Source: Candidatus Poriferihabitaceae bacterium
GTDB lineage: Bacteria > Pseudomonadota > Gammaproteobacteria > Arenicellales > Poriferihabitantaceae
DNA length: 64,000 nt
Assembly: GCA_965204925.1 (NCBI GenBank)
Contig: OZ242021.1
Location: 652,000-715,999, forward strand
Reading direction: 5' to 3'
Below, piece by piece: positions 11,025 to 23,906 of the stretch. A program made the position numbers and the translations under genes. The notes under the pieces are model-generated. The model ran no database searches. It was not told the origin of the DNA and saw only the letters and a program-made list of their open reading frames with translations. The number at the start of each line of letters is the position of its first letter. Positions within the stretch are counted from its first letter, which is position 1.

Positions 11025-11197
11025 ATCTGTCCTCCCTCTATTCAATTCACTTCATTTTACAACAAATCCATACTCCACCGGGTAACGGGCGCGGACCGTC
11101 CGATTGCATCAGGGGCGGCCGCGGCTCACTATATTCCATGGCCCCGCGTTGTCTCGCCGAAACGTCGCGCCTTGAGAAATCCTCATCGCCGCTGCCT

Positions 11198-11980
11198 CTA
11201 GCGTCCTTTCCAGACCGGTTCCCTTTTCTCGGCAAAAGCCAGCGCTCCTTCGTGCATATCCTCACTGTTGTAAAGCCTCTTGACGGTGGCGAGTCCCTCG
11301 GCGTTGAGCAGGTCAAGCGACTCCTGAAAGTTCATATTTTCCGTTGCCCGCACGGTCTCCTTGATCGCGGCGAAAACCAGCGGCGGCCCGTTGGCGAGGC
11401 GCCGCGCGATCTCCCTCGCCCGAACCAGCAGATTGTCGGCGCTGGTAATTTCATTGACCAGCCCCCACCTGCGGGCTTCTCCGGCATCTATCCAGCGCCC
11501 GGTCAGCAGCAATTCCATGGCTACGTGATACGGAACACGCCGCGGCAGCTTCAGCGTTGCCGCATCCGCCAGTGTACCGACATTGATCTCCGGCAGGGCG
11601 AACGTCGCATGCTCGGCCGCGATAATGATGTCCGTGGAAAGCATCAGTTCGAATCCGCCGCCGCAGGCAATGCCGTTGACCGCTGCAATGACCGGTTTAT
11701 TCATATCGGGAAGTTCCTGCAACCCCCCGAATCCGCCGACCCCGAAGTCACTGGTCACGCCCTCCCCTGCGGCGGCGGCCTTCAAATCCCATCCGGCGCA
11801 AAAAAACTTCTCGCCGCCTCCGGTAATGATCGCCGCCCGCAAGTCGGGATCATCCCGGAAATTCGCAAACGTCCTGCCCAGCTCCTGGCTGAGCGGCGCA
11901 TCTATGGCATTGGCTTTGGGGCGGTCCAGCGTAACTTCAAGCACGCCGCCGTCAATCACTGTTCTCACTGCATCGGACAT
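11198..11980 (-). CDS. crotonase-family enoyl-CoA hydratase (CaiD/carnitinyl-CoA dehydratase-like)
   Basis: 260 aa, VLEVTLDRPKANAID...ITGGGEKFFCAGWDLK...VNGIACGGGFEL. The crotonase oxyanion-hole motifs are present. Subfamily assignment is from memory only. Confidence 0.8.
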   Translation of the reverse strand: MSDAVRTVIDGGVLEVTLDRPKANAIDAPLSQELGRTFANFRDDPDLRAAIITGGGEKFFCAGWDLKAAAAGEGVTSDFGVGGFGGLQELPDMNKPVIAAVNGIACGGGFELMLSTDIIIAAEHATFALPEINVGTLADAATLKLPRRVPYHVAMELLLTGRWIDAGEARRWGLVNEITSADNLLVRAREIARRLANGPPLVFAAIKETVRATENMNFQESLDLLNAEGLATVKRLYNSEDMHEGALAFAEKREPVWKGR

Positions 11981-12016
11981 GGTCTTCTCACCTTCAGGGT
12001 TAACTTGTCAACAGGT

Positions 12017-14086
12017 TCAATTTCGCACCCGAATCAGCGCATCGGCAACTACAGCTCCCTGTTGTTGCGGCCTGACAATCAGCGGGTTGATCTCCAGTTC
12101 GACGATCTCGTCGCGGCGCCTTTCGATGAGCTCGGCTACAGCCATTACAGTATCCACAACCGCTTCGACATCAGCCGGCGGCCGCTTGCGGAATCCGTCC
12201 AGCAAAGGCCGCGTTTTCAGTCTCCCGAGAGCAGCGTTTATGGCAGCGCGGTCGACCGGAAACAGCAATATTTCCCGATCCCTGATCAATTCGACAAGCA
12301 TGCCGCCAAAGCCGAGAACGAGGTAATGGCCAAACACCCGATCATAACCGACTCCGATCAACAATTCAGCGACAGCATCGGCAACAACCTGCTCCACCAG
12401 CAGGGTATCGGACAACCCGAACAGGCGGGCGCCTTGCTCGTCCAGGGTTTCCTCATCGTGGATTCCGAGCGCCACAGCGCCCGCTTCGGACTTGTGCGCG
12501 ATAAACCGGGATACGGCCTTCAATACCACAGGATAGCCGATTTTTTCCGCGGCCGCCCTGACCTCGTCCATGGTCCTCGCGGTGGTCGAGTCCGGCGCTC
12601 TGATACCCCAGGACCTTAAAAATTGCTTGGCCTCATTTTCATCCATACTGCGGGCGAGTTCAGGCTCGGCCGCTGTCGACAACCCGGGCGCTGCGGGCAT
12701 TGACCAGCCCCTGCCCCATGCTGCGCCGATTCTGCTGACCGTTTCAATCGCCGCGAGGGCCTGTTCCATACCGTGCAGGGGCGCCACGCCATTGTCCATG
12801 AGCCATGAACGGATTTCGGGATTGAGGTTTTCCGACAGACAGGTGACAACCGCGCCCCGGCAACCCGTCTGCCGGCAAGCTGTGACAAACGCCCGGGCCG
12901 CCTCCAGCCAATCGTCGATCACACAATCGTTGACAATGGGGAAGTCGATGACGAGCAGGGTCAGGTCATAGTTTGCGGACATCATGGCCGTGAACGCCGC
13001 ACTCATACGTTGCCGATCACCCCAGATAAAAGTGTGATAATCCAGCGGGTTATCAATGGCGACATATTCATTCAACGTTACCCGCAAGCGTGCCCGCTGA
13101 GCCTCCCCGATGGCCGGAAAAACCAGTTCCCGCCCGACAGCCAGATCTGCAATGAGCGCCGCCTCTCCGCCGGAACAACTCATTGACGCAATGCGGTTGC
13201 CGGGCAACGGGCCCACGACAAGAGCCAGTTTCAGCGCTTCCAGGAATGTTTCCATGTTGCCGGCAATACCGATACCGAGGCGGTTGAACAAGGCCGTATA
13301 AAGTCCCTCTTGTCCGGTCAGCGTAGCGGTATGGCTGAACGCGATACGCGCCCCGAGGCCCGACTTGCCCGTTTTCAGGACAATGACCGGCACCCTGCGC
13401 GCGCGCGCGCGGGCAGCCAGTTCGATAAACAGGGGCAAATTTCGCAGACCTTCAATGTACAGGCCGATCGCCTTTATCCTTTCGTTCTCAAGCGCCGCCG
13501 CCATGACCTCCTCGATACCGATCACGGCCTGGTTGCCCACGGTGACCAGCCAGGAAACCGACAATCCTCTTTGCTGCAACGTGAAATTGATGCCGATGTT
13601 TCCACTCGATGAAATGATCGCGGCGCCCTGTTCCACAGCCTGAAGCCCATGCTGATCCGGAAACATGGCCGCGCCCAGCAGAGCATTGATATATCCATAA
13701 CAATTCGGCCCCAATACCGGCATGTCTACGGCCGCCTCCCGCAATCTGCGCTGACGGACTACGCCCTCGTCCCCCACTTCGCTGAACCCCGAAGCGAGGC
13801 AGACCGCTCCACCCGCGCCGATGCGGTTCAGCTGATCGACGATACCGATCGCCGCTTCGGCCGGCGCCCCGATGAATACGGCATCGGGCGCTTCGGGCAA
13901 CAGACGGCAGTCAGCCAGACAGGCAATGCCGGCCATCGACTCTCTTTTCGGATTGACCGCCCACATCTTGCCCGCGAAGCCGAGCTTGCGGCATTGAACC
14001 AGGGCCTGCCCGGCTTCGCGCCCCCCGACCACCGCGACCGAGCGTGGATTCAAAAACCGGATCAGCCGATCGATGTCAACCCGCAC
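12017..14086 (-). CDS. ADP/NDP-forming acyl-CoA synthetase (fused CoA-binding, ligase-CoA and ATP-grasp domains)
   Basis: 689 aa, PRSVAVVGG...GPNCYGYIN...C-terminal ATP-grasp. GTG start at 14084-14086. Confidence 0.8.
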   Translation of the reverse strand: MRVDIDRLIRFLNPRSVAVVGGREAGQALVQCRKLGFAGKMWAVNPKRESMAGIACLADCRLLPEAPDAVFIGAPAEAAIGIVDQLNRIGAGGAVCLASGFSEVGDEGVVRQRRLREAAVDMPVLGPNCYGYINALLGAAMFPDQHGLQAVEQGAAIISSSGNIGINFTLQQRGLSVSWLVTVGNQAVIGIEEVMAAALENERIKAIGLYIEGLRNLPLFIELAARARARRVPVIVLKTGKSGLGARIAFSHTATLTGQEGLYTALFNRLGIGIAGNMETFLEALKLALVVGPLPGNRIASMSCSGGEAALIADLAVGRELVFPAIGEAQRARLRVTLNEYVAIDNPLDYHTFIWGDRQRMSAAFTAMMSANYDLTLLVIDFPIVNDCVIDDWLEAARAFVTACRQTGCRGAVVTCLSENLNPEIRSWLMDNGVAPLHGMEQALAAIETVSRIGAAWGRGWSMPAAPGLSTAAEPELARSMDENEAKQFLRSWGIRAPDSTTARTMDEVRAAAEKIGYPVVLKAVSRFIAHKSEAGAVALGIHDEETLDEQGARLFGLSDTLLVEQVVADAVAELLIGVGYDRVFGHYLVLGFGGMLVELIRDREILLFPVDRAAINAALGRLKTRPLLDGFRKRPPADVEAVVDTVMAVAELIERRRDEIVELEINPLIVRPQQQGAVVADALIRVRN

Positions 14087-14108
14087 CAGCCTGTCTCCCG
14101 TCCAGTCT

Positions 14109-15281
14109 TCACGATTTGCTTTCCAACGGTCGCAATAGCGCGCGGGAAATAATCAGACGCTGGATTTCACTCGTTCCTTCCCAGATACGCTCTACCCGGG
14201 CATCGCGCCAGATTCTCTCCAAAGGGAGGTCCGACATCAGACCCATGCCGCCAAATATCTGTAGCGCCTCGTCGGCTATGAAAGCCAGCGCTTCGCTCGC
14301 CGACAGCTTGGCAAGAGCCGCGTCCATATCGGTCATTTCATTGTTACAGGCACGCGCGCCGGCCCGGTAGGTAATCAACTCGGCTGACCTGAGCTTCAGC
14401 GCCATATCCGCCAATTTGAAACTGACCCCCTGAAACTTCCCGATGGTCTGGTTGAACTGGATGCGGCCGGCGGCATGCTCACAGGCCAGCTCGAAGGCGC
14501 GATCACAACGACCCAGGCAGATCGCCGCCACTTGCAGCCTGGTATTGCCCAGCCAGTCATTGGCCACCTCAAACCCCTTGTCCACCTCGCCCAATACCTG
14601 GCTTGCCGGAATGCGGCATCGATCGAATTCAAGAATGCAATTATGATATCCGCGATTGGACACACTCCGGTAACCCGGACGTATGACATAGCCGGGCGTA
14701 CCGGTATCGACAAGAAATGCAGTGATTCTCTTTCTCGGGCCTCTCGGCGTATGATCGACTCCCGTAGCGGCGAACAGGATCACGAAATCGGACACATCCG
14801 CATGGCTGATGAAATGCTTGGTACCCTGAATCATGAAATCGCCGCCGTCCCTGTGCGCCCGGCATGACATGGAACGGACATCGGAGCCGGCGCCCGGTTC
14901 GGTCATGGCCAGACAGTCGATCTTCTCTCCGCGTATGCACGGATACAGGTATTTTTCCCTCTGCTCCGCGGTACAGGCCTGCAGGATATTACTGGGACGC
15001 CCAACGGCGTACTGCAATGCGTAGCTGGCCCTGCCCAGTTCGCGGTCAAGCATGCACATCGACAGCGGGTCCAGTCCGCCGCCGCCCAACTCCGCGGGCA
15101 TCGCCGCGGCGTACAGCCCCGCCTCGATCGAGCGCCCGATAATCTGTTGGCGAAGTTCAGGGCGAACGTCACCGCACTGCTCGACTTCCTGTTCAAACGG
15201 ATACAGTTCCCGCTCGACGAAACGTTTGGCCGTCTCGATCAGCATCCGTTGCTCTTCGCTGTAATCGAAGTTCATGATCAT
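14109..15281 (-). CDS. acyl-CoA dehydrogenase
   Basis: 390 aa, ...LAMTEPGAGSD...GTSEIQRLIISR. The start ATG overlaps the stop codon of the upstream gene (ATGA at 15278-15281). Confidence 0.85.
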   Translation of the reverse strand: MIMNFDYSEEQRMLIETAKRFVERELYPFEQEVEQCGDVRPELRQQIIGRSIEAGLYAAAMPAELGGGGLDPLSMCMLDRELGRASYALQYAVGRPSNILQACTAEQREKYLYPCIRGEKIDCLAMTEPGAGSDVRSMSCRAHRDGGDFMIQGTKHFISHADVSDFVILFAATGVDHTPRGPRKRITAFLVDTGTPGYVIRPGYRSVSNRGYHNCILEFDRCRIPASQVLGEVDKGFEVANDWLGNTRLQVAAICLGRCDRAFELACEHAAGRIQFNQTIGKFQGVSFKLADMALKLRSAELITYRAGARACNNEMTDMDAALAKLSASEALAFIADEALQIFGGMGLMSDLPLERIWRDARVERIWEGTSEIQRLIISRALLRPLESKS

Positions 15282-16369
15282 ACCCTCCCGTGTCCCGTTG
15301 CCGGCGTTCCGTTATCGGCGCCCTCGAGCGTTGTGGCATGGACAGCGTCGCCGTTTGTCTGCAAAGCGTCCTCGCGCGAGAGTCGCAAGAGCGATTCCTG
15401 ATATCGGGTCAGCGCCTTGCCCGCGGCGTAATCGTTTGCCTGCAATGCCCGCAGTATGGCGACGATACAGTCATCCCTTTTCCTTTCCAGTTCAGCGATA
15501 CTGCGCCCCTCAGCCTGCTGGTCGGACTGCGCCGATATTTTGTCGAGCAACTGATCGGTCAGCTCGGGGCCATCAAACCGGGCCCACGGCCATTTCAGCG
15601 ACGCGCCGAACTGGGACATGAAATGGCGTATCCCGCCCTCGCCGCCGGCAATGCGAAAAGTCTCGAACGGTCCCATGAATGCCCAGCGGATACCCGGACC
15701 ATACGCGATCGCCTGATCCAGTTCATCGCAGGTAGCGACATCCTCATTCAAAAGGTGCAGAGCTTCCCGCCACAGGGCTTCCATGAGGCGGTCGGCAATA
15801 AACGCCTCGACCTCCTTGCGCACAACGAGGGGGTGCATACCGATCCCCGCATAAAACGCGCGCGCGCGGTCAACAACGCGGCGGCTGGTGGCATTGCCCG
15901 CCACGATTTCAACGAGCGGCATGAGATAGACCGGATTGAACGGGTGGCCGACGATTACGCGCTCGGGATGCTCGACGCCTTCCTGCATTTCTCCCGGCAA
16001 CAAGCCGGAAGAGGAAGAGGCCACGATCACCGCAGCGCCCGTATGCTTGCAAATTTCCTGCATCAATACCTTCTTGACCTTGATGCGCTCGGGTCCGCTC
16101 TCCTGAACGAAATCGGTGCCGGACACGGCCGCCTCAATACTGTCGACCAGACATAACCGCCCCCTGACACGCACCGGAGCCGAAGTCATGCTGCGACAGG
16201 CGCGCAACGCATGATCAAGCACCTGATCGATACGCTTTCCGATCCCCGGCGCCGGGTCATACAGGTTGACGTCGATATTATTGATCAACAAGCGGGCAGC
16301 CCACGCCGAGCCGATGACCCCGCCGCCGACCAGCCCGACCGTCTTGACTTTGCCATTTGCCTCGCTCAC
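15278..16369 (-). CDS. 3-hydroxyacyl-CoA dehydrogenase family, L-carnitine dehydrogenase (LcdH)-like
   Basis: VGLVGGGVIGSAWAARL Rossmann motif, HPFNPVYLMPLVE, FIADRLMEALWREALHL, RHFMSQFG, SIAELERKRDDC. As I recall it, this pattern is characteristic of LcdH rather than generic FadB. GTG start. Confidence 0.7.
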   Translation of the reverse strand: MSEANGKVKTVGLVGGGVIGSAWAARLLINNIDVNLYDPAPGIGKRIDQVLDHALRACRSMTSAPVRVRGRLCLVDSIEAAVSGTDFVQESGPERIKVKKVLMQEICKHTGAAVIVASSSSGLLPGEMQEGVEHPERVIVGHPFNPVYLMPLVEIVAGNATSRRVVDRARAFYAGIGMHPLVVRKEVEAFIADRLMEALWREALHLLNEDVATCDELDQAIAYGPGIRWAFMGPFETFRIAGGEGGIRHFMSQFGASLKWPWARFDGPELTDQLLDKISAQSDQQAEGRSIAELERKRDDCIVAILRALQANDYAAGKALTRYQESLLRLSREDALQTNGDAVHATTLEGADNGTPATGHGRV

Positions 16370-16563
16370 CGGACTTATCCTCTTTGTTTGCCGTTCGGGG
16401 TCCTCCCCGGCAACGATCGGGCCGGCGACAGTCGGCGTTGATCGCTTACCGGAAATAACCGCACAAGTGATAAATACGTTATAGTTCGGGACTGAAGCTC
16501 CCGAATAATCTGACGGGGAAATTCTCCATCTTTAATAGCGAAGTTGCAAGAAATTTTACTGCT

Positions 16564-17058
16564 TTGGATTGCCCCCGTTGTTGCCGATCGTATCCGGTGA
16601 ACGGGGAAATCCATATCCGCAAAGCCACCCCGCATGACGCCCGGCGAATCGCCGGTTTCAACCGGGAAATGGCGTTTGAGACCGAAGGCGCAAGGCTGGA
16701 CCCGAACGTCGCTCTGGCCGGCGCCCGGCGGATCATCGGGGAGCCGAGCCTCGGTTTTTATCTGGTCGCCGAACATCAACGGGAAGTGGTCGCCTCGTTA
16801 ATGATTACGAGCGAATGGAGCGACTGGCGAAACGGGGTTTTCTGGTGGGTACAGAGTGTTTATGTCATACCGCCGTGGCGGCGCAAGGGAATCTACCGCC
16901 GTCTCTATGAAAAAGTGAAGGAGCTGGCTGCGCAGAACCCCGACGTCTGCGGCTACCGCCTCTATGTGGAAAGGGGAAACCGCGCCGCCCGCTCAACCTA
17001 CCGCAGCGTCGGCATGGTGGAGACTCATTACCGGATGTACGAAGAGTTGAAACGATAA
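16564..17058 (+). CDS. GNAT family N-acetyltransferase
   Basis: IHIRKATPHDARRIAGF...VYVIPPWRRKGIYRRLYEKV (acetyl-CoA binding R/Q-x-x-G-x-G/A-like). Start uncertain: TTG at 16564 or GTG at 16597. Confidence 0.65.
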   Translation: MDCPRCCRSYPVNGEIHIRKATPHDARRIAGFNREMAFETEGARLDPNVALAGARRIIGEPSLGFYLVAEHQREVVASLMITSEWSDWRNGVFWWVQSVYVIPPWRRKGIYRRLYEKVKELAAQNPDVCGYRLYVERGNRAARSTYRSVGMVETHYRMYEELKR

Positions 17059-17064
17059 AGCCGT

Positions 17065-18216
17065 TCACACGCGCCCTTGCCATGCCGGGGCGCGCACGCG
17101 CTGCCACCTGCGTGTCACCACTTCCGCCTGCCGGCGCTGCCCGCGCCCGATGTCCATAGACAGGACACTGCCCGCCGCGCTGAACCCGATGTTGACCTTC
17201 GCAAAGGCGATATTGGAGCCGTATTTGCGGGAGTACGCCAGGCTCGTCACAATTCCCACCCGGTTATCGTTGCCATCGAGCAAATCCCGGGTATGACGCA
17301 ACGGACACAATGGCTCACCACTGACAAACAGGTAAACGAGGGCATTCCTGATACCCTCCCGCAAAATCCGCTCGAGCGCTTTCGCAGACAGGCACTCGGC
17401 TGTCTTCGCCGGCTGGAAAAAGCGATCGAGCCCGATTTCATAAGGATTGTCCTCAAGCGTCATATCACTGCCGTAAGACAATAACCCGCGCTCCATGCGG
17501 TCCACGAGATTGGGGCAACCGGCGCGAATATGGTACTTCTGTCCAACTTCCCAAATCGCGTCCCACAAGGCAAGGCCTTGCGCAGAATCCTCAAGATAAA
17601 TTTCGTATCCCCCCTGCCCGCTCCAGCCCGATCTGGCTACGATCAGCTCCATGCCCGCGATAGCGGCGCGGACATACCGGAAAAACTTCAGTTCCCGGAT
17701 CTCCTCACCCACCATTTCCGCGATCAGATCATCGGCTTTCGGGCCCTGCACCGCCAGAGGGCTGACATCGGGCATGAATACGTCGACATCCAGGTTGCGC
17801 CCGCAGGCAATACCCTTCAGCCACAACAGGACACCGGAATCGGAGATCGACAGCCAGTAGCGATCGTCGGCCAGTTTGAGCAGCACCGGATCATTGACAA
17901 TCCCGCCCCGCTCATCGACGAGAACGACATACATGCACTGGCCAATACGGCAGCGCGACAGATCCCTCGGCGTGACCAGTTCGACCAGTTTCAGGGCATC
18001 GGGGCCGGCCACCTCGACCTGACGCTGACACGACACATCCCAGATCTGCACATGTCGGCACAGATGTTCGTAATCTTCCTCATGGGAGCGGAACACAGAG
18101 GCGAGCGGCGCATGATTGTAAACGGTAAACACCCGCGCGCCCTGCTCGAACACGCGCTCTTCAAAGGGAGTTTTCCCGATTCGCCGGGACAAAACCAGTT
18201 CGGGGGGCGCCTTCAT
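17065..18216 (-). CDS. GcvT-family aminomethyltransferase/demethylase, DmdA (DMSP demethylase)-like
   Basis: 383 aa from the ATG at 18214-18216, a stand-alone GcvT fold with no FAD domain. TVYNH, VQIWDVS, DVSPLAVQGP, FFRY, VARSGWSGQGGYEIY and RAGCPN...GLLSYGSDM match my recollection of the DmdA clade. Substrate is unproven. Confidence 0.6.
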   Translation of the reverse strand: MKAPPELVLSRRIGKTPFEERVFEQGARVFTVYNHAPLASVFRSHEEDYEHLCRHVQIWDVSCQRQVEVAGPDALKLVELVTPRDLSRCRIGQCMYVVLVDERGGIVNDPVLLKLADDRYWLSISDSGVLLWLKGIACGRNLDVDVFMPDVSPLAVQGPKADDLIAEMVGEEIRELKFFRYVRAAIAGMELIVARSGWSGQGGYEIYLEDSAQGLALWDAIWEVGQKYHIRAGCPNLVDRMERGLLSYGSDMTLEDNPYEIGLDRFFQPAKTAECLSAKALERILREGIRNALVYLFVSGEPLCPLRHTRDLLDGNDNRVGIVTSLAYSRKYGSNIAFAKVNIGFSAAGSVLSMDIGRGQRRQAEVVTRRWQRVRAPAWQGRV

Positions 18217-18330
18217 AAGATTCCGAATCCTTGCATGCGATAACGAAAAACAGGCGGGGATTATGCACCGAAAACGGTCATCACGGGAAACAAATTGCCA
18301 TGTTGTCGCCTCATGGAGTATAGTTGCCGC

Positions 18331-19974
18331 ATGAAAGAAAACTACGATGTCCTGGATCGGGTGAATGGTCTCAACCATGTGGAACTCACCCCCATTTCTT
18401 TCCTGCAGCGCGCCAGCGAGGTTTATGCAGACGCTGCCGGGATCATTTACGGCAGCCGCGTCTCAACCTGGAAAGAAGTGTCGAAACGGTGCCGTAGCCT
18501 GGCGGACGGACTTGGCAAACTGGGAGTAAAAAAGGGAGATACCGTATCAATAATGGCTGCCAATACCCCGCAACTGGCAGAAGCCCACTTCGGGGTTCCC
18601 ATGTCGGGAGGCGTATTGAATACGATCAACACGCGGCTTGACGTCGATACGATCGCCTTTATTCTCGCGCACAGCGACGCCCGCGTCCTGATCACCGACA
18701 CCCGGTTCTCCGATGTCGTTTCCAGGGCCCTGTCGGCGCTTGACGACCCGCCTGTCGTTATTGACATTATCGATAGCGAGGCGCCGCCCCCGCAGGCCGG
18801 CGGTCAGCGCCTCGGCAACATGACATACGAGGAATTGCTCGACAGCGGAGATGAAAACGGCGGCTGGGGCATGCCCCAATCGGAATGGGACGCGCTGACG
18901 CTGAACTACACTTCAGGCACCAGTGGGCAGCCCAAGGGCGTCGTCTACCATCATCGCGGCGCTTACCTGATGTCCCTGGGTACGGTCGCGGCCTGGCAAA
19001 TCCCGAGATTCGCACGCTATTTGTATACGGTTCCGATGTTCCACTGCAATGGCTGGGGGCATGTCTGGAGCATGGCGCTCATGGGCGGCGCCCTCGTCTG
19101 CAACCGCGCAGTCAGCGCCGAAAATATCTTTGCCGCGATACGCGAACAGCGCATTACCCACTTCGGAGCGGCGCCGATTGTCCTCGCCATGCTGGCCAAT
19201 GCGCCGGATTCGATCAAATATATCCCGGACTACACCGTTCAGGTGATGACGGCAGGCGCCCCGCCACCGAGCAAGATACTGGAAAAGACCCAGCGACTTG
19301 GACTCAATGTCATTCATGTATACGGCCTCACCGAAACCTTCGGCCATGTCGTTTTCTGTGACTGGAAAACCCGATGGTCGGAGCTGACCCCCGAAGAACA
19401 GGCCGAAATCAAGGCCCGGCAGGGAGTCCGCTTCCCGATCATGCAGGCAGCCCGGGTCATGGACGTCCACTCCGGCGAAATGGCGCCGGCTGACGGGCGC
19501 ACGATCGGGGAAATCGTCCTGCGCGGCAATGCGATCATGAAAGGTTACTACAAAAATCCCGGGGCGACCGCCGAAGCGTTCCGGGACGGCTGGTTCCATA
19601 GCGGCGATCTGGCCGTTGTACATGCCGATGGCTATATGGAAATCAAGGACAGACTGAAGGACATTATCATATCCGGCGGAGAAAACATTTCTTCGATCGA
19701 GATCGAATCGACGCTTTACAAATTCCCGAAAGTAGCCGCTGCCGCAGTCGTCGCAAAGCCGGATGAAAAATGGGGAGAAACCCCTTGCGCGTTTATCGAA
19801 CTGAAACCCGGCATGCAATCGACCGAAGAGGAGATCATTGCCTTTTGCAGGCAGAACATGGCCGGCTACAAACGTCCGAAACAGGTCATATTCCTCGAAT
19901 TGCCAAAGACCTCCACCGGAAAAATCCAGAAATTCAAGCTGCGTGAAATGGTCGCCGCCGGCGCTATGACGTGA
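18331..19974 (+). CDS. AMP-forming acyl-CoA synthetase (DmdB / short-medium chain acyl-CoA ligase-like)
   Basis: LNYTSGTSGQPKGV (AMP motif I), VYGLTET, DRLKDIIISGGENI, TSTGKIQK. ATG at 18331. Confidence 0.85.
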   Translation: MKENYDVLDRVNGLNHVELTPISFLQRASEVYADAAGIIYGSRVSTWKEVSKRCRSLADGLGKLGVKKGDTVSIMAANTPQLAEAHFGVPMSGGVLNTINTRLDVDTIAFILAHSDARVLITDTRFSDVVSRALSALDDPPVVIDIIDSEAPPPQAGGQRLGNMTYEELLDSGDENGGWGMPQSEWDALTLNYTSGTSGQPKGVVYHHRGAYLMSLGTVAAWQIPRFARYLYTVPMFHCNGWGHVWSMALMGGALVCNRAVSAENIFAAIREQRITHFGAAPIVLAMLANAPDSIKYIPDYTVQVMTAGAPPPSKILEKTQRLGLNVIHVYGLTETFGHVVFCDWKTRWSELTPEEQAEIKARQGVRFPIMQAARVMDVHSGEMAPADGRTIGEIVLRGNAIMKGYYKNPGATAEAFRDGWFHSGDLAVVHADGYMEIKDRLKDIIISGGENISSIEIESTLYKFPKVAAAAVVAKPDEKWGETPCAFIELKPGMQSTEEEIIAFCRQNMAGYKRPKQVIFLELPKTSTGKIQKFKLREMVAAGAMT

Positions 19975-20148
19975 AGCCCGGCATGGCGGGGAAATTGCTG
20001 CTTGTTCGCTCTTGACGCCGCCCGGTTGCCATTTACAGGCTGGCGGATTAGAATGCAAACAATCGTTCCGCCGCCTGCGACAAACGATCGGTATTGCGCC
20101 CCGCGGCGGCGCGAGGTTTTCTTTTTGTCAGATAAACACGTGAGAGGA

Positions 20149-21501
20149 ATGATGACCACGCGCGTTGCAATTATCGGAGCCGGACCCAGCGGGCTGGCTC
20201 AACTCAGGGCTTTCAAATCCGCCCGTGAAAAAGGGACTGAAATTCCGGAAATTGTCTGCTTTGAGAAGCAATCCGACTGGGGGGGCTTGTGGAACTACAC
20301 GTGGCGTACCGGGCTGGATGAGTATGGAGAACCGGTACATGGCAGCATGTACCGCTACCTGTGGTCGAATGGACCCAAGGAAGGACTGGAATTTGCCGAT
20401 TATTCCTTTGAGGAACATTTTGGCAAGCCGATCGCGTCATACCCGCCGCGCGCCGTCCTGTTCGACTACATCGCCGGGCGCGTCAAAAAAGCCGGAGTTC
20501 GCAGCCTCATCCGCTTCCGGTCAACAGTCAGGCATGTCACGTATGATGACGCCAGCGAGAAGTTTACGGTGACCGTCGAGGATCATGCGCAAGACCGCGA
20601 ATACAGCGAGCCATTCGACTGTGTGATCGTTGCCACCGGTCATTTCTCCATTCCCCATGTCCCCCATTTCGATGGCTTCGATTCCTTCCCCGGGCGCATC
20701 CTGCACGCCCATGATTTCCGCGACGCCGTGGAGTTCCGCGGGCAGGACATTCTCATTATCGGGACCTCTTATTCGGCGGAAGATATCGGTTCGCAATGCT
20801 GGAAGTACGGGGCAAGGTTCATCACCGTATCCCATCGTACGGCGCCGACCGGGTATCACTGGCCGGACAACTGGCAGGAAGTCCCCCTGCTGCAAAAGGT
20901 GGAGGGCAATACGGCGACATTCAAGGACGGCAGTACCCGCGACGTCGATTCGATCATTATATGCACCGGCTATCTCCACCACTTCCCGTTCATGGAGGCA
21001 AAACTGAGACTGAAAACGAACAACCGCCTGTATCCGGTCAATCTGTACAACGGCGTGGTCTGGGAACACAACCCGAAACTGATGTATCTGGGCATGCAGG
21101 ATCAATGGTATACGTTCAACATGTTCGACGCCCAGGCCTGGTATGCGCGCGACCTCATTCTCGGCAGGCTGCAAGTCCCCTCACAACCCGAAATGCACGC
21201 GGACATTGAAAAATGGCGCGAAGCCGAGGACAACATTGCGGACGATTACGGTGCGATCAAATACCAGGGGGACTATACGCTGCACTTGATGGGCATGACC
21301 GATTATCCGCGTTTCGACATAAAAGAGGCCAACCGGGCTTTCTATGAATGGAAGAAAAACAAGAAGAAGGACATCATGACATTTCGTGATTTCGGACACC
21401 GCTCACCGTTAACGGGAACGATGGCCCCGGCCCACCATACCCCGTGGAAAGACGCGCTCGACGATTCTCTCGGTAGTTACCTCGATATTCGGCGAGATTG
21501 A
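20149..21501 (+). CDS. tmm: flavin-containing monooxygenase, bacterial trimethylamine monooxygenase type
   Basis: 450 aa. Contains IIGAGPSG (FAD), the FMO-identifying motif [11 protein letters not shown] (FxGxxxHxxxY/F) and [10 protein letters not shown] (NADPH GxSxxA). GAGAGGA lies upstream of the ATG at 20149. Convergent with tdm. Confidence 0.8.
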
Positions 21502-21539: not shown

Positions 21540-23906
21540 TCATGAAGAGGGGCGGTAATTCCCCCGCACCCGTTCCTTTCCGGGGTCGAAATGGGGGAAC
21601 GGGACGACCGTTGCCGGAATACGCTTCTGATGTCCGTCCAGCTTTCCGACCTCCACTTGCGTTCCCGGTGCGCAATGAATGATCTTGATTCTGCACAAGG
21701 CAATATTTTTCCCGAGAAAAGGCGAGATCATGGCGCTCGTAATGGCGCCCACCTGCTCGCGGCCGACAAACACAGGGTCGCCGTGGGCAGCGGCTTCTCC
21801 GCCGTTCACATCCAGCCCGACCAGCTTCTGGCGGGGATTTTTCTTGCGTTCGATCAGTTGCTCGCGGCCGATAAAGTCATCCTGCTTGGATTTCAGGGGA
21901 ACGGTAAAGCCGATGCCGGCCTCAAACGGGTCGGTCTGATCGCAAAACTCGTAACCGGCGAAAACGAGACCGGCCTCGATGCGCAACAGATCCAGCGCCT
22001 CCAGACCGAGCGGGGCTATGCCAAATTCCTGTCCGGCATCCCGCACCGCGTCCCAGACCGCTTCTGCATCACGGGGATGGCAGAATATCTCATACCCCCG
22101 CTCACCGGTATAGCCCGTTCGCGAGCAGACGATCGGAACCCCGTCCGCGCCGCCGATACGGGCGATGGAAAACCGAAACCAGTCGAGTTCTTCGAGGCGA
22201 GCCTGGTCAGGACGGGTCCACACACATTTCGCCAGCGTTTCCATGCTTTTCGGTCCCTGCACCTGCAAGTTATGAAGCTGTGAGGTCGAGTCCTTCACCC
22301 AGACCCGCAGCTTGCGCCTTGCAGCCTGCTCGCGAATCCACAACCCTGAGGTATCGTTGCCCCCTATCCATCGAAAATTGCGGTCGCCGAGCCTGAATAC
22401 GGTGCCGTCATCGATCATACCGCCCGACTCATAGCACATCGCGGTATAGACGACCTGCCCGATCGACATCTTGCGGACATCCCGCGTAACGCAGGTCTGC
22501 ATCAACAGCTCAGCGTCCGGGCCGGTTACTTCGTATTTTCTCAACGGCGACAGGTCGGTCATGACGACCCGTTCCCGGCATGCCCAATACTCCGCGACCG
22601 CGCCGAGGTTGGTAAAGTTGTCTGCCAGCCAGTAACCATTGTACTCGGAGAAATTGCGGGTCAGTCGAGAGGTTCTGTTGTGAAAACTGGTCTCTTGTGT
22701 CATTTGAGGCTCCGCGTCGGTGGTTTTCCTGAATGCAATGGCGCGTTTGAACAGGTTTTTACCCGTATACGTTCGCACATGAATATCCGTTGGCGCCCAC
22801 CCGTTGGCAGGGTCGATATCACAGGGGCAAGCGGACGAAACACAAACGAGGTCGGTCAATGCCTGCATCAATACATAGTCCCCCGGTCTCGACCAGGGGT
22901 CGTCAAACAGGTACAGGTATGAATCATCAAAAAACGTATTGAAGAACAGGTTCATGGCATGCCACCCTGCCCTCGGTTCGATCGGCCACGCGGCCAGCGC
23001 CCGATTGAAGTTTTCCGAACAGTTGACGTGTCCGGGATAACCGGCCTCGTCATAGTACTTGCTGGTACAGGCTATGCCAAAACTGTCGTGGCGGCCGCAG
23101 GTATCCTGCACGACTTCCACGAGCGGTTTGAAATCAATGTCATAGAACCTCGAATAAAGCCCCGGAGCGGGCCACGCGCTACCCATCAGGGAACGGGTCG
23201 TGGTGGCGCTCAGGTTGCGGGTCTTGCCCGCGTCCAGCGCGCCCTGATCGAAGCACTGGAAATCGGAGCACTGGCGGCCATCGACATCGATGATCTGGAT
23301 GTACTCCCCGGCCCGCACCTCGTAGCCTTGCGCCGTAGCGGCGTCAATACGAAAGCTCTGCGCTTCGTCAGCGAGCGGCTCGGGCAGATCGTGTTCGGTA
23401 AGGCAACCGGGGTTCGCGCGAGTAATATAAACAACGAGATCGGTCGGCGGGTCATTGGCGCCGTCCACGGCCATGGCATTGCCGGGAGCGCAGATCAGGC
23501 CGATCGATTCTCGCTCCGCCGTCAGTTTCACCGCTGAACCGGGCGCGGTTTCCCCGCACAGCAGTTCGGCGCCCCGGCAACCTGCCAAATCAACAGAAAA
23601 AGAGCGCAGCTTGCGGCGGATTTTCGCTGCGCCGGCGTTACCGGTATCCAGCATTTCGGCAATCGGCGCCGCGCCGGCAGAAGGTTCGACCCCGAGAGAG
23701 GCGGTCACATTGGCTCCGGTTGCATCGAACGCAAAGACAAGCGCCGGCTGACGCCCTTCCCGATCGACGATCTCCAGCTGATCACCCGCCATGATCGGTA
23801 CGGCAATGACGGCGCCGCCACGCACCACGCAGCGCTCCCTGCCAAGCCACCGCTCACCCAGTCCGGGCTCCCTCAGACGAATTACAGAGCTGATGTCTGT
23901 CGTCAT
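21540..23906 (-). CDS. tdm: trimethylamine-N-oxide demethylase type protein (N-terminal DUF1989 plus C-terminal GcvT/THF-binding domain)
   Basis: 788 aa. The N-terminal half resembles urea-carboxylase-associated DUF1989 (...IIDVDGRQCSDF...CSENFN...). The C-terminal half is a GcvT aminomethyltransferase fold. This two-domain architecture is the one described for Tdm. Confidence 0.8.
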   Translation of the reverse strand: MTTDISSVIRLREPGLGERWLGRERCVVRGGAVIAVPIMAGDQLEIVDREGRQPALVFAFDATGANVTASLGVEPSAGAAPIAEMLDTGNAGAAKIRRKLRSFSVDLAGCRGAELLCGETAPGSAVKLTAERESIGLICAPGNAMAVDGANDPPTDLVVYITRANPGCLTEHDLPEPLADEAQSFRIDAATAQGYEVRAGEYIQIIDVDGRQCSDFQCFDQGALDAGKTRNLSATTTRSLMGSAWPAPGLYSRFYDIDFKPLVEVVQDTCGRHDSFGIACTSKYYDEAGYPGHVNCSENFNRALAAWPIEPRAGWHAMNLFFNTFFDDSYLYLFDDPWSRPGDYVLMQALTDLVCVSSACPCDIDPANGWAPTDIHVRTYTGKNLFKRAIAFRKTTDAEPQMTQETSFHNRTSRLTRNFSEYNGYWLADNFTNLGAVAEYWACRERVVMTDLSPLRKYEVTGPDAELLMQTCVTRDVRKMSIGQVVYTAMCYESGGMIDDGTVFRLGDRNFRWIGGNDTSGLWIREQAARRKLRVWVKDSTSQLHNLQVQGPKSMETLAKCVWTRPDQARLEELDWFRFSIARIGGADGVPIVCSRTGYTGERGYEIFCHPRDAEAVWDAVRDAGQEFGIAPLGLEALDLLRIEAGLVFAGYEFCDQTDPFEAGIGFTVPLKSKQDDFIGREQLIERKKNPRQKLVGLDVNGGEAAAHGDPVFVGREQVGAITSAMISPFLGKNIALCRIKIIHCAPGTQVEVGKLDGHQKRIPATVVPFPHFDPGKERVRGNYRPSS

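Follow-up and report, generated by a model that had tools for sequence, protein, structure and literature searches.

We analysed a 64,000-nt stretch of the genome of a Candidatus Poriferihabitaceae bacterium (positions 652,000 to 715,999 of contig OZ242021.1, assembly GCA_965204925.1; henceforth the window), centring on four adjacent minus-strand open reading frames (ORFs) between window positions 11198 and 16369. A preliminary description, made from the DNA letters and their translations, had identified these ORFs as genes for an L-carnitine dehydrogenase (LcdH)-like protein, an acyl-CoA dehydrogenase (ACAD), an ADP-forming CoA ligase and a CaiD-like hydratase, and we confirmed all four at the coordinates it gave. 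In the direction of transcription, the first is lcdH (15278..16369; 363 aa, with a GTG start), whose product has an L-carnitine dehydrogenase domain but lacks the thioesterase domain that usually follows at the C terminus. It is followed by a bcoC-type ACAD gene (14109..15281; 390 aa), whose product contains three ACAD Pfam domains and is predicted to convert gamma-butyrobetainyl-CoA (GBB-CoA) to crotonobetainyl-CoA, by a gene for a putative bcoAB-type ADP-forming acyl-CoA synthetase (12017..14086; 689 aa; CoA_binding_2, Succ_CoA_lig and ATP-grasp_5 domains), and by a gene for a putative bcoD/caiD-type crotonobetainyl-CoA hydratase (11198..11980; 260 aa; ECH_1 domain). We consider it likely that the four form the core of a cluster for the catabolism of gamma-butyrobetaine (GBB) and carnitine, of the bco/cdh type known from Sinorhizobium meliloti, and that other parts of this cluster have been pruned. 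The pathway itself has already been characterised in bacteria; what is new here is a reduced member of it with legible deletion scars and an apparent reliance on unlinked paralogues.

This reading is carried first of all by the match to rhizobia. A translated search with the ligase against plasmid and megaplasmid records gave Rhizobium and Sinorhizobium as top matches (44–47% identity). The clusters found there, in S. meliloti and Rhizobium sp. Kim5, comprise a GlxA-type regulator together with BKACE, LcdH (496 aa), ACAD, ADP-forming ligase, CaiD and an ABC transporter, and the last four enzyme genes stand in an order identical to lcdH-ACAD-ligase-hydratase in the window. Specifically, the LcdH dehydrogenase domain was 50% identical to S. 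meliloti LcdH over 303 aa, the ACAD 59% identical to the S. meliloti cluster ACAD over 384 aa, the hydratase 65% identical over its full length to the product of the gene annotated caiD in S. meliloti, and the ligase 44% identical to the Kim5 cluster ligase (515 bits) and about 45% identical to the S. meliloti locus. This comparison with rhizobial GBB genes had been proposed in the preliminary description, and it favours the route set out there, i.e., GBB via GBB-CoA, crotonobetainyl-CoA, L-carnitinyl-CoA and L-carnitine to 3-dehydrocarnitine, as one of the rhizobial type: the Sinorhizobium/Rhizobium cluster holds the nearest relatives of all four proteins, in the same gene order, and their best matches are to that cluster and not to generic beta-oxidation. 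As for the S. meliloti record used here (CP090106.1), it is labelled 'plasmid pSymB' yet is 3.72 Mb long, and is probably a mislabelled chromosome; its ligase gene is unannotated, was matched in two pieces and may be disrupted in that strain.

The S. meliloti bco/cdh system therefore shares with the window all four enzyme types and their arrangement, at 44–65% identity, and the two genomes also have homologous family-5 binding-protein ABC transporters. Published work on S. meliloti has BcoAB making GBB-CoA from GBB, ATP and CoA. It also describes LcdH (SM2011_c01638) as bifunctional, oxidising carnitine and hydrolysing betainyl-CoA (Bazire et al. 2019, J Bacteriol 201:e00772-18, as cited in later papers). 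By contrast with the rhizobial cluster, which contains a BKACE, a thioesterase fused to LcdH and a GlxA-type regulator, the window cluster has none of the three, and its host is a sponge-associated gammaproteobacterium rather than a rhizobium. Two other known systems resemble the operon in part. The caiX-cdhCAB-hocS genes of Pseudomonas aeruginosa likewise take carnitine to glycine betaine via LcdH and BKACE, but they are clustered with a regulator and lack the CoA-dependent steps from GBB to carnitine (ligase, ACAD and hydratase). The carnitine dehydrogenase of Pseudomonas is short and stand-alone, with no fused thioesterase, as is the LcdH of the window. The caiTABCDE genes of Escherichia coli, which interconvert carnitine, crotonobetaine and GBB, include a CaiD-type hydratase and a CaiA-type ACAD that act on betainyl-CoA esters; however, that system relies on CaiB, a CoA transferase, and on CaiC, an AMP-forming ligase, operates anaerobically in the reductive direction and has no LcdH, and the window proteins scored below the NCBIfam cut-offs for CaiD and CaiA.

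Domain and motif content agreed with these assignments. The lcdH product contains the Pfam domains 3HCDH_N and 3HCDH, while the 4HBT_2 thioesterase domain was not detected in its 363 aa; its best NCBIfam families were carnitine 3-dehydrogenase (417.7 bits, profile positions 3–333 of 495) and L-carnitine dehydrogenase (363.6 bits). Its NAD motif (GGGVIG), together with His142 and Glu154, occupies invariant columns of the LcdH alignment, and such a His/Glu pair is catalytic in enzymes of the 3-hydroxyacyl-CoA dehydrogenase fold. In the ligase, alignment to the Rhizobium sp. Kim5 enzyme showed a conserved SHTA motif, whose histidine we take to be the phospho-histidine. The hydratase had crotonobetainyl-CoA hydratase as its best NCBIfam family (321.9 bits) and carries both crotonase catalytic glutamates (GGGFE and ALPE). 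For the ACAD, the best matches among solved structures were short-chain ACADs. Residue 368 of its 390-aa ORF, the presumed catalytic base, lies in the motif RIWEGTSE here and in the sister species, and the same motif reads RIWDGTSE (with Asp) in the ACAD of the S. meliloti cluster and in a paralogous ACAD from a second module of the relatives (see below).

Relatives and deletion scars

The closest genomic loci were found in metagenome-assembled genomes of sponge-associated Arenicellales and Candidatus Poriferihabitaceae, and not in the roseobacter-like setting that the preliminary description had implied. Genus-wide comparisons covered eight species genomes, G000 (this genome) to G007, and the ligase was 75–80% identical across all of them. 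In four loci of the relatives (L007, L010, L011 and L013) the cluster consists of BKACE (296–307 aa), LcdH fused to a 4HBT_2 thioesterase (512–518 aa), a short-chain dehydrogenase/reductase (SDR; 260–275 aa), ACAD, ligase, hydratase and an M24/creatinase-like protein (411–438 aa). Its BKACE is 66% identical to the S. meliloti enzyme. The surroundings are those of the window: DmdB-like, DmdA-like and GNAT genes lie upstream and a YbdK-type ligase gene downstream, and the GNAT gene adjoins the relatives' cluster in at least L007 and L013.

DNA alignments between the window and the relative locus L007 showed that the shorter layout of the window arose by three in-place deletions. The first removed BKACE. 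The 194-bp spacer between the GNAT gene and lcdH retains the upstream region of the relative's BKACE and both ends of the gene itself. Its 5' remnant (16456..16489, minus strand) holds the first ~11 codons (N-Y-N-V-F-I-T-C-A-V), with the TTG start changed to CCG, and its 3' remnant (16375..16423, minus strand) matches the final ~50 nt of BKACE in L007 and its stop codon, after which lcdH starts; ~0.8 kb of coding sequence is gone. The preliminary description had reported that BKACE and thiolase genes were missing from the window, which holds for intact genes; a BKACE remnant nonetheless lies directly upstream of lcdH. A 134-aa minus-strand ORF at 16375–16779 is not a gene; it runs across the BKACE remnants and into the GNAT gene on the plus strand.

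The second deletion explains the missing thioesterase domain. Homology to the L007 lcdH gene ends near position 15367, in the linker that precedes the thioesterase, and picks up again with the SDR 3' end and the start of ACAD; because it stops and resumes in this manner, a single deletion of ~1.3 kb took the SDR together with the thioesterase domain. As a result, lcdH now draws its last ~29 codons (15278..15366, minus strand) from the former SDR 3' end and the SDR-ACAD spacer, and the tail of the protein after residue ~341, i.e., its final ~22 residues, has no homology to the relative's LcdH. The third deletion removed most of the M24/creatinase-like gene. Its 5' remnant (11091..11186, minus strand) aligns to the hydratase stop codon and the first ~100 nt of M24 in L007, with an indel and a premature stop, so that the 152-bp spacer between hydratase and ybdK keeps ~100 nt of the M24 5' end in frameshifted form.

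Loss of the thioesterase domain has probably occurred more than once in the genus, with different boundaries: the LcdH proteins of G002 and G004 also lack it, and we regard these losses as separate because their boundaries differ from those in the window and the SDR is kept. Such varied boundaries offer, on a small scale, a natural experiment in how far individual parts of the pathway can be dispensed with or exchanged.

What remains in the window does not appear to be decaying, judging from protein identities, since the ORFs are intact and their identity to orthologues is no lower than that of their neighbours. Compared with G003, the ACAD was 91%, the hydratase 92%, the ligase 80% and LcdH 81% identical (the last over residues 1–341, against a 512-aa LcdH-thioesterase), while the flanking ybdK, GNAT and dmdA products were 75–80% and Tmm 89% identical.

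Proposed pathway and candidates for the missing steps

By orthology, the operon would accomplish four steps of the route. The BcoAB-type ligase would make GBB-CoA from GBB, ATP and CoA; the BcoC-type ACAD would oxidise it to crotonobetainyl-CoA; the BcoD/CaiD-type crotonase would hydrate this to L-carnitinyl-CoA; and, once L-carnitine has been freed, LcdH would oxidise it to 3-dehydrocarnitine. The step between the last two would call for a thioesterase, for which a stand-alone protein encoded elsewhere in the genome is the candidate, and cleavage of dehydrocarnitine would call for an unlinked BKACE; we suggest both, and uptake of the substrate by a retained family-5 ABC transporter, with less confidence than the steps based on orthology. 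If this supply in trans holds, the route would end in glycine betaine, which betaine-homocysteine methyltransferase (BHMT), present in the genome above its curated cut-off, could then demethylate. The route probably feeds on carnitine and GBB derived from the host. The use of carnitine by guilds of sponge symbionts is established in the literature, and the operon would add, at the level of genes, a CoA-dependent GBB/carnitine route carried by an abundant type of sponge symbiont.

Searches of the whole genome (2.62 Mb in a single contig, C1) placed every BKACE, thiolase and Ring_hydroxyl_A family hit outside the window, which contains no intact gene of these three kinds. The sole BKACE of the genome (BKACE-A; C1:115625-116509) is a paralogue of the deleted type and lies next to a major facilitator superfamily (MFS) transporter gene. 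The stand-alone thioesterase of the LcdH type (4HBT_2; C1:2065172-2065627; 151 aa) had as its sole NCBIfam match the C-terminal part of carnitine 3-dehydrogenase, and its domain has counterparts in most other genomes of the genus, among the matches listed. The family-5 binding-protein ABC transporter (C1:104537 onward) has a binding protein 44% identical to its counterpart next to the S. meliloti cluster.

This transporter belongs to a second, paralogous and GBB/carnitine-like module, which in relatives (e.g., G003 C1:2300001-2318000) comprises ligase2, ACAD2, hydratase2, a short LcdH2 and the ABC transporter, with BKACE-A ~7 kb away in G003. Its proteins are 37% (ligase2), 53% (ACAD2), 48% (hydratase2) and ~39% (LcdH2) identical to those of the window and 37% (LcdH2), 53% (ACAD2), 48% (hydratase2) and 35% (ligase2) identical to the rhizobial ones, each further from the latter than is the window's own protein; since the second module is consistently the more distant, the window's module is the orthologue of the rhizobial cluster. 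The second-module enzymes are absent from this genome, although the transporter is kept, and a search for their remnants upstream of the transporter found only a tRNA gene and thrS, so that loss in place is not demonstrable.

Across the genus, BKACE falls into three paralogue groups (A, B and C), of which this genome keeps only A; B is the type of the deleted cluster gene. LcdH is full length in G001, G003, G005, G006 and G007 and lacks the thioesterase in G000, G002 and G004. BKACE-B is present in G001, G002, G003, G005 and G007, absent from G004 and G006 and deleted with a scar in G000, while BKACE-A occurs in every genome except G002. Ligase2, the marker gene of the second module, is present in G001, G003, G004 and G007, reduced to a fragment in G005 and absent from G000, G002 and G006 (i.e., intact in 4 of the 8). 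Absence of BKACE-B in three of the eight genomes and of BKACE-A in one, with no genome lacking both, is consistent with the two enzymes being interchangeable, though it does not prove it.

Given these candidates, we find it about evenly balanced whether BKACE-A, the thioesterase and the ABC transporter make good the lost steps in trans. More tentatively, and inclining somewhat against it, we consider that the bacterium may run a chimeric pathway, in which the enzymes of one module work with the transporter and BKACE of the second module, which is otherwise absent here; if so, the two BKACE paralogues would be interchangeable. The wider interest would be modest: a catabolic cluster is cut back to its core, and paralogues at unlinked loci may stand in for what was lost. 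A different solution would be for the LcdH without thioesterase, found in 3 of the 8 species (two of which also lack the cluster BKACE), to act directly on L-carnitinyl-CoA in uninterrupted beta-oxidation. Ligase, ACAD, hydratase and LcdH, followed by a housekeeping thiolase, would then yield betainyl-CoA and acetyl-CoA, bypassing both the thioesterase and the BKACE steps; we think this quite improbable.

Several points weigh against reading the locus as a pruned GBB/carnitine cluster with its missing steps encoded elsewhere. None of the NCBIfam equivalog cut-offs was reached: LcdH scored 417.7 bits against a cut-off of 592 (NF005716) and 363.6 against 414 (NF005471), and the hydratase 321.9 against 500 (NF002936). 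The first of these models, for carnitine 3-dehydrogenase, spans the thioesterase domain that this LcdH has lost, and carnitine 3-dehydrogenase and crotonobetainyl-CoA hydratase were still the top-scoring families for the two proteins despite the low scores. BKACE-A is 52–54% identical to the rhizobial enzymes (54% to that of S. meliloti), compared with 66% for the deleted cluster type, and its place in the relatives is with another module; we can only guess that it acts on dehydrocarnitine. Identity of the stand-alone thioesterase to the fused domains is no more than 28–36% (36% to the C-terminal domain of S. meliloti LcdH). The correspondence between the CP090106.1 locus and the published genes SM2011_c01637-41 is one that we infer. 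Finally, neither a regulator nor a clear promoter or terminator was found for the operon.

Neighbouring genes and alternative readings

The strongest competitor, which we nevertheless hold to be unlikely, is that the pathway is truncated or decaying and no longer reaches glycine betaine. Under this reading the operon would interconvert GBB, crotonobetaine and carnitine (e.g., to make carnitine as an osmolyte) or stop at 3-dehydrocarnitine, or would simply await loss in a shrinking genome. In its favour are the three deletions at one locus and the small size of the genome; this genome also lacks the BKACE orthologue, the third BKACE paralogue and the second module, and the BKACE and thioesterase that remain are unlinked to the operon and only distantly related to the lost ones. 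Against this, the four ORFs are intact, 80–92% identical to their orthologues and no less conserved than their neighbours, and two other species also keep an LcdH without thioesterase, independently. Moreover, every genome in the genus keeps BKACE-A or BKACE-B, and the transporter, a thioesterase and BHMT are present in this one.

The genes on the far side of lcdH raise a second possibility, namely that the operon acts on another onium or short-chain acid, such as a dimethylsulfonium analogue of GBB or carnitine or an acyl-CoA derived from dimethylsulfoniopropionate (DMSP). Beyond a divergent plus-strand GNAT gene (16564–17058) lies a block (17065–19974) with a DmdA-like gene, whose product scored 440.6 bits against the NCBIfam DMSP demethylase cut-off of 410, and a gene for a DmdB-like AMP-binding ligase (18295–19974) paired divergently with it. 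The synteny of this dmdB-dmdA-GNAT block with the carnitine cluster extends to a sister species, and the best solved-structure match of the operon ligase was DddX (202 bits; Psychrobacter, PDB 7CM9), an ATP-dependent DMSP lyase with the same ADP-forming acyl-CoA synthetase architecture and an onium carboxylate as substrate. However, DddX acts alone as a lyase, whereas the window ligase sits in an operon with dehydrogenases and a hydratase, and it matched the rhizobial BcoAB-type ligase at 515 bits; all four proteins are much closer to rhizobial GBB/carnitine enzymes than to DMSP-related ones, with CaiD the best hit of the hydratase and LcdH that of the dehydrogenase. The sister clusters contain a BKACE of the dehydrocarnitine type, 66% identical to that of S. 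meliloti, and the operon appears to be transcribed separately from the GNAT gene. We accordingly give little credence to a different onium substrate. The specific form that the preliminary description had kept in reserve, in which the ACAD and hydratase serve methylmercaptopropionyl-CoA (MMPA-CoA) in DMSP catabolism, was rejected because a DmdA/DmdB-like pair already adjoins the operon and the ligase scored 515 bits against the rhizobial enzyme but 202 against DddX; the rejection draws on the ADP-forming type of the ligase and on best matches of CaiD and rhizobial BcoC type, and not on direct comparison with DmdC or DmdD.

Further along lie tmm (20002–21501) and tdm (21540–23906). The preliminary description had placed the operon beside these two genes and had suggested, from their adjacency and from the absence of BKACE, a trimethylammonium route ending in release of trimethylamine (TMA), which would feed Tmm and Tdm. 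The genes are indeed nearby, 3.6–7.5 kb from the operon, but the divergent GNAT, DmdA-like and DmdB-like genes intervene. An ACAD-like flavoenzyme that eliminates TMA from GBB-CoA is known from the anaerobic gut bacterium Emergencia timonensis, whose bbu system, like the window's, starts from GBB-CoA. By contrast, the window ACAD is orthologous to the rhizobial dehydrogenase (59% identity), and it is by this orthology, not by comparison with Bbu sequences, that we set the two systems apart; the ACAD is also 91% identical to orthologues in complete glycine-betaine-forming clusters, and the organism is of an aerobic type. Adjacency of tmm to the operon was found in only 1 of the 8 species; in the other seven, tmm and the ligase gene are separated by ~0.2–1.75 Mb or lie on different contigs. 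Such proximity is private to this genome and reflects a rearrangement, and the absence of BKACE is a recent deletion rather than a design feature. Because the adjacency is private and BKACE was deleted in place, the TMA-release idea is left without support, and we judge it highly improbable; this removes a tempting but unfounded link between the operon and TMA production. Only in this genome does tmm adjoin the dmdB-like gene, and relative to the sister species the breakpoint of the rearrangement must fall between these two genes.

A genome-wide Ring_hydroxyl_A search found no CntA-type Rieske oxygenase in or beside the cluster. It returned four Rieske oxygenases of ~390 aa, all outside the window (C1:2495457, 2000237, 1542089 and 1648228). 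All four had GbcA as best NCBIfam family, far below its cut-off, and the two compared with solved structures matched the carnitine monooxygenase CntA best (121–123 bits). Taken together, they are only distant kin of CntA, GbcA and Stc2 (121–145 bits; two compared with structures, four with NCBIfam). Assignment to any of these three enzymes is not supported, and the four are unrelated to the operon; it is possible that they are demethylases or oxygenases of quaternary amines.

Lastly, generic short-chain or branched-chain beta-oxidation with no link to quaternary amines would account for four standard beta-oxidation folds, scores below every equivalog cut-off and an ACAD whose top solved structures are short-chain enzymes, but it is scarcely credible given that the four-gene order and best matches are those of the rhizobial carnitine cluster, that an ADP-forming ligase and an LcdH-type dehydrogenase of free acids fall outside ordinary beta-oxidation, and that the relatives' operon contains BKACE and LcdH-thioesterase.

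Transcription unit and minor observations

The four-gene operon appears, from its layout, to form a transcription unit of its own, divergent from the GNAT gene that stands between lcdH and the DmdA-like gene. Its genes are closely packed, with spacers of 22 and 36 nt at the two later junctions. At the first, the ATGA overlap between the lcdH stop and the start of the ACAD ORF, from which translational coupling had been suggested, is present in the sequence at 15281–15278; a true overlap, however, is doubtful. Homologues of the ACAD begin with MNF..., which corresponds to the second in-frame ATG at 15275, and a GGAGG motif lies 8 nt upstream of that codon but only 2–3 nt from the first ATG. The true start of the ACAD is likely to be ATG 15275, and because of this agreement between homologues and GGAGG spacing the junction is probably TGAtcATG, tightly packed but without a true overlap.

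Upstream of lcdH, the operon probably still uses the old BKACE promoter region. A candidate promoter (TTGCAA-17 nt-GAGAAT; 16521..16549, minus strand) lies in a block conserved with the upstream region of the relative's BKACE; its hexamers match at 8 of 12 positions, which is below the threshold of the scanner, and the scan called no site there. Overall, the promoter and terminator scan returned fewer sites than were found in shuffled sequences, and repeats in the region upstream of the operon look like chance.

Other observations concern the loci of the unlinked candidates. A 168-aa ORF between BKACE-A and the MFS gene was considered as a thioesterase and set aside: it matched nothing in Pfam, did not resemble the C-terminal domain of LcdH, and is probably spurious. 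Between the ABC transporter and BKACE-A (C1:111381-114550) lie an SNF2-fragment ORF, a gene for an Mrr-type restriction endonuclease and a Fic gene, which look like a small defence or mobile insertion. The stand-alone thioesterase gene has as neighbours a gene for another family-5 binding protein and one for a fused hydantoinase/caprolactamase-like protein of 1223 aa, a setting (C1:2057001-2074000) that suggests another island for the catabolism of host metabolites. Finally, a third ADP-forming acyl-CoA synthetase (C1:1011985-1014123), 30% identical to the operon ligase and conserved in 7 of the 8 genomes, could be another enzyme for onium acids or a DddX-like one.

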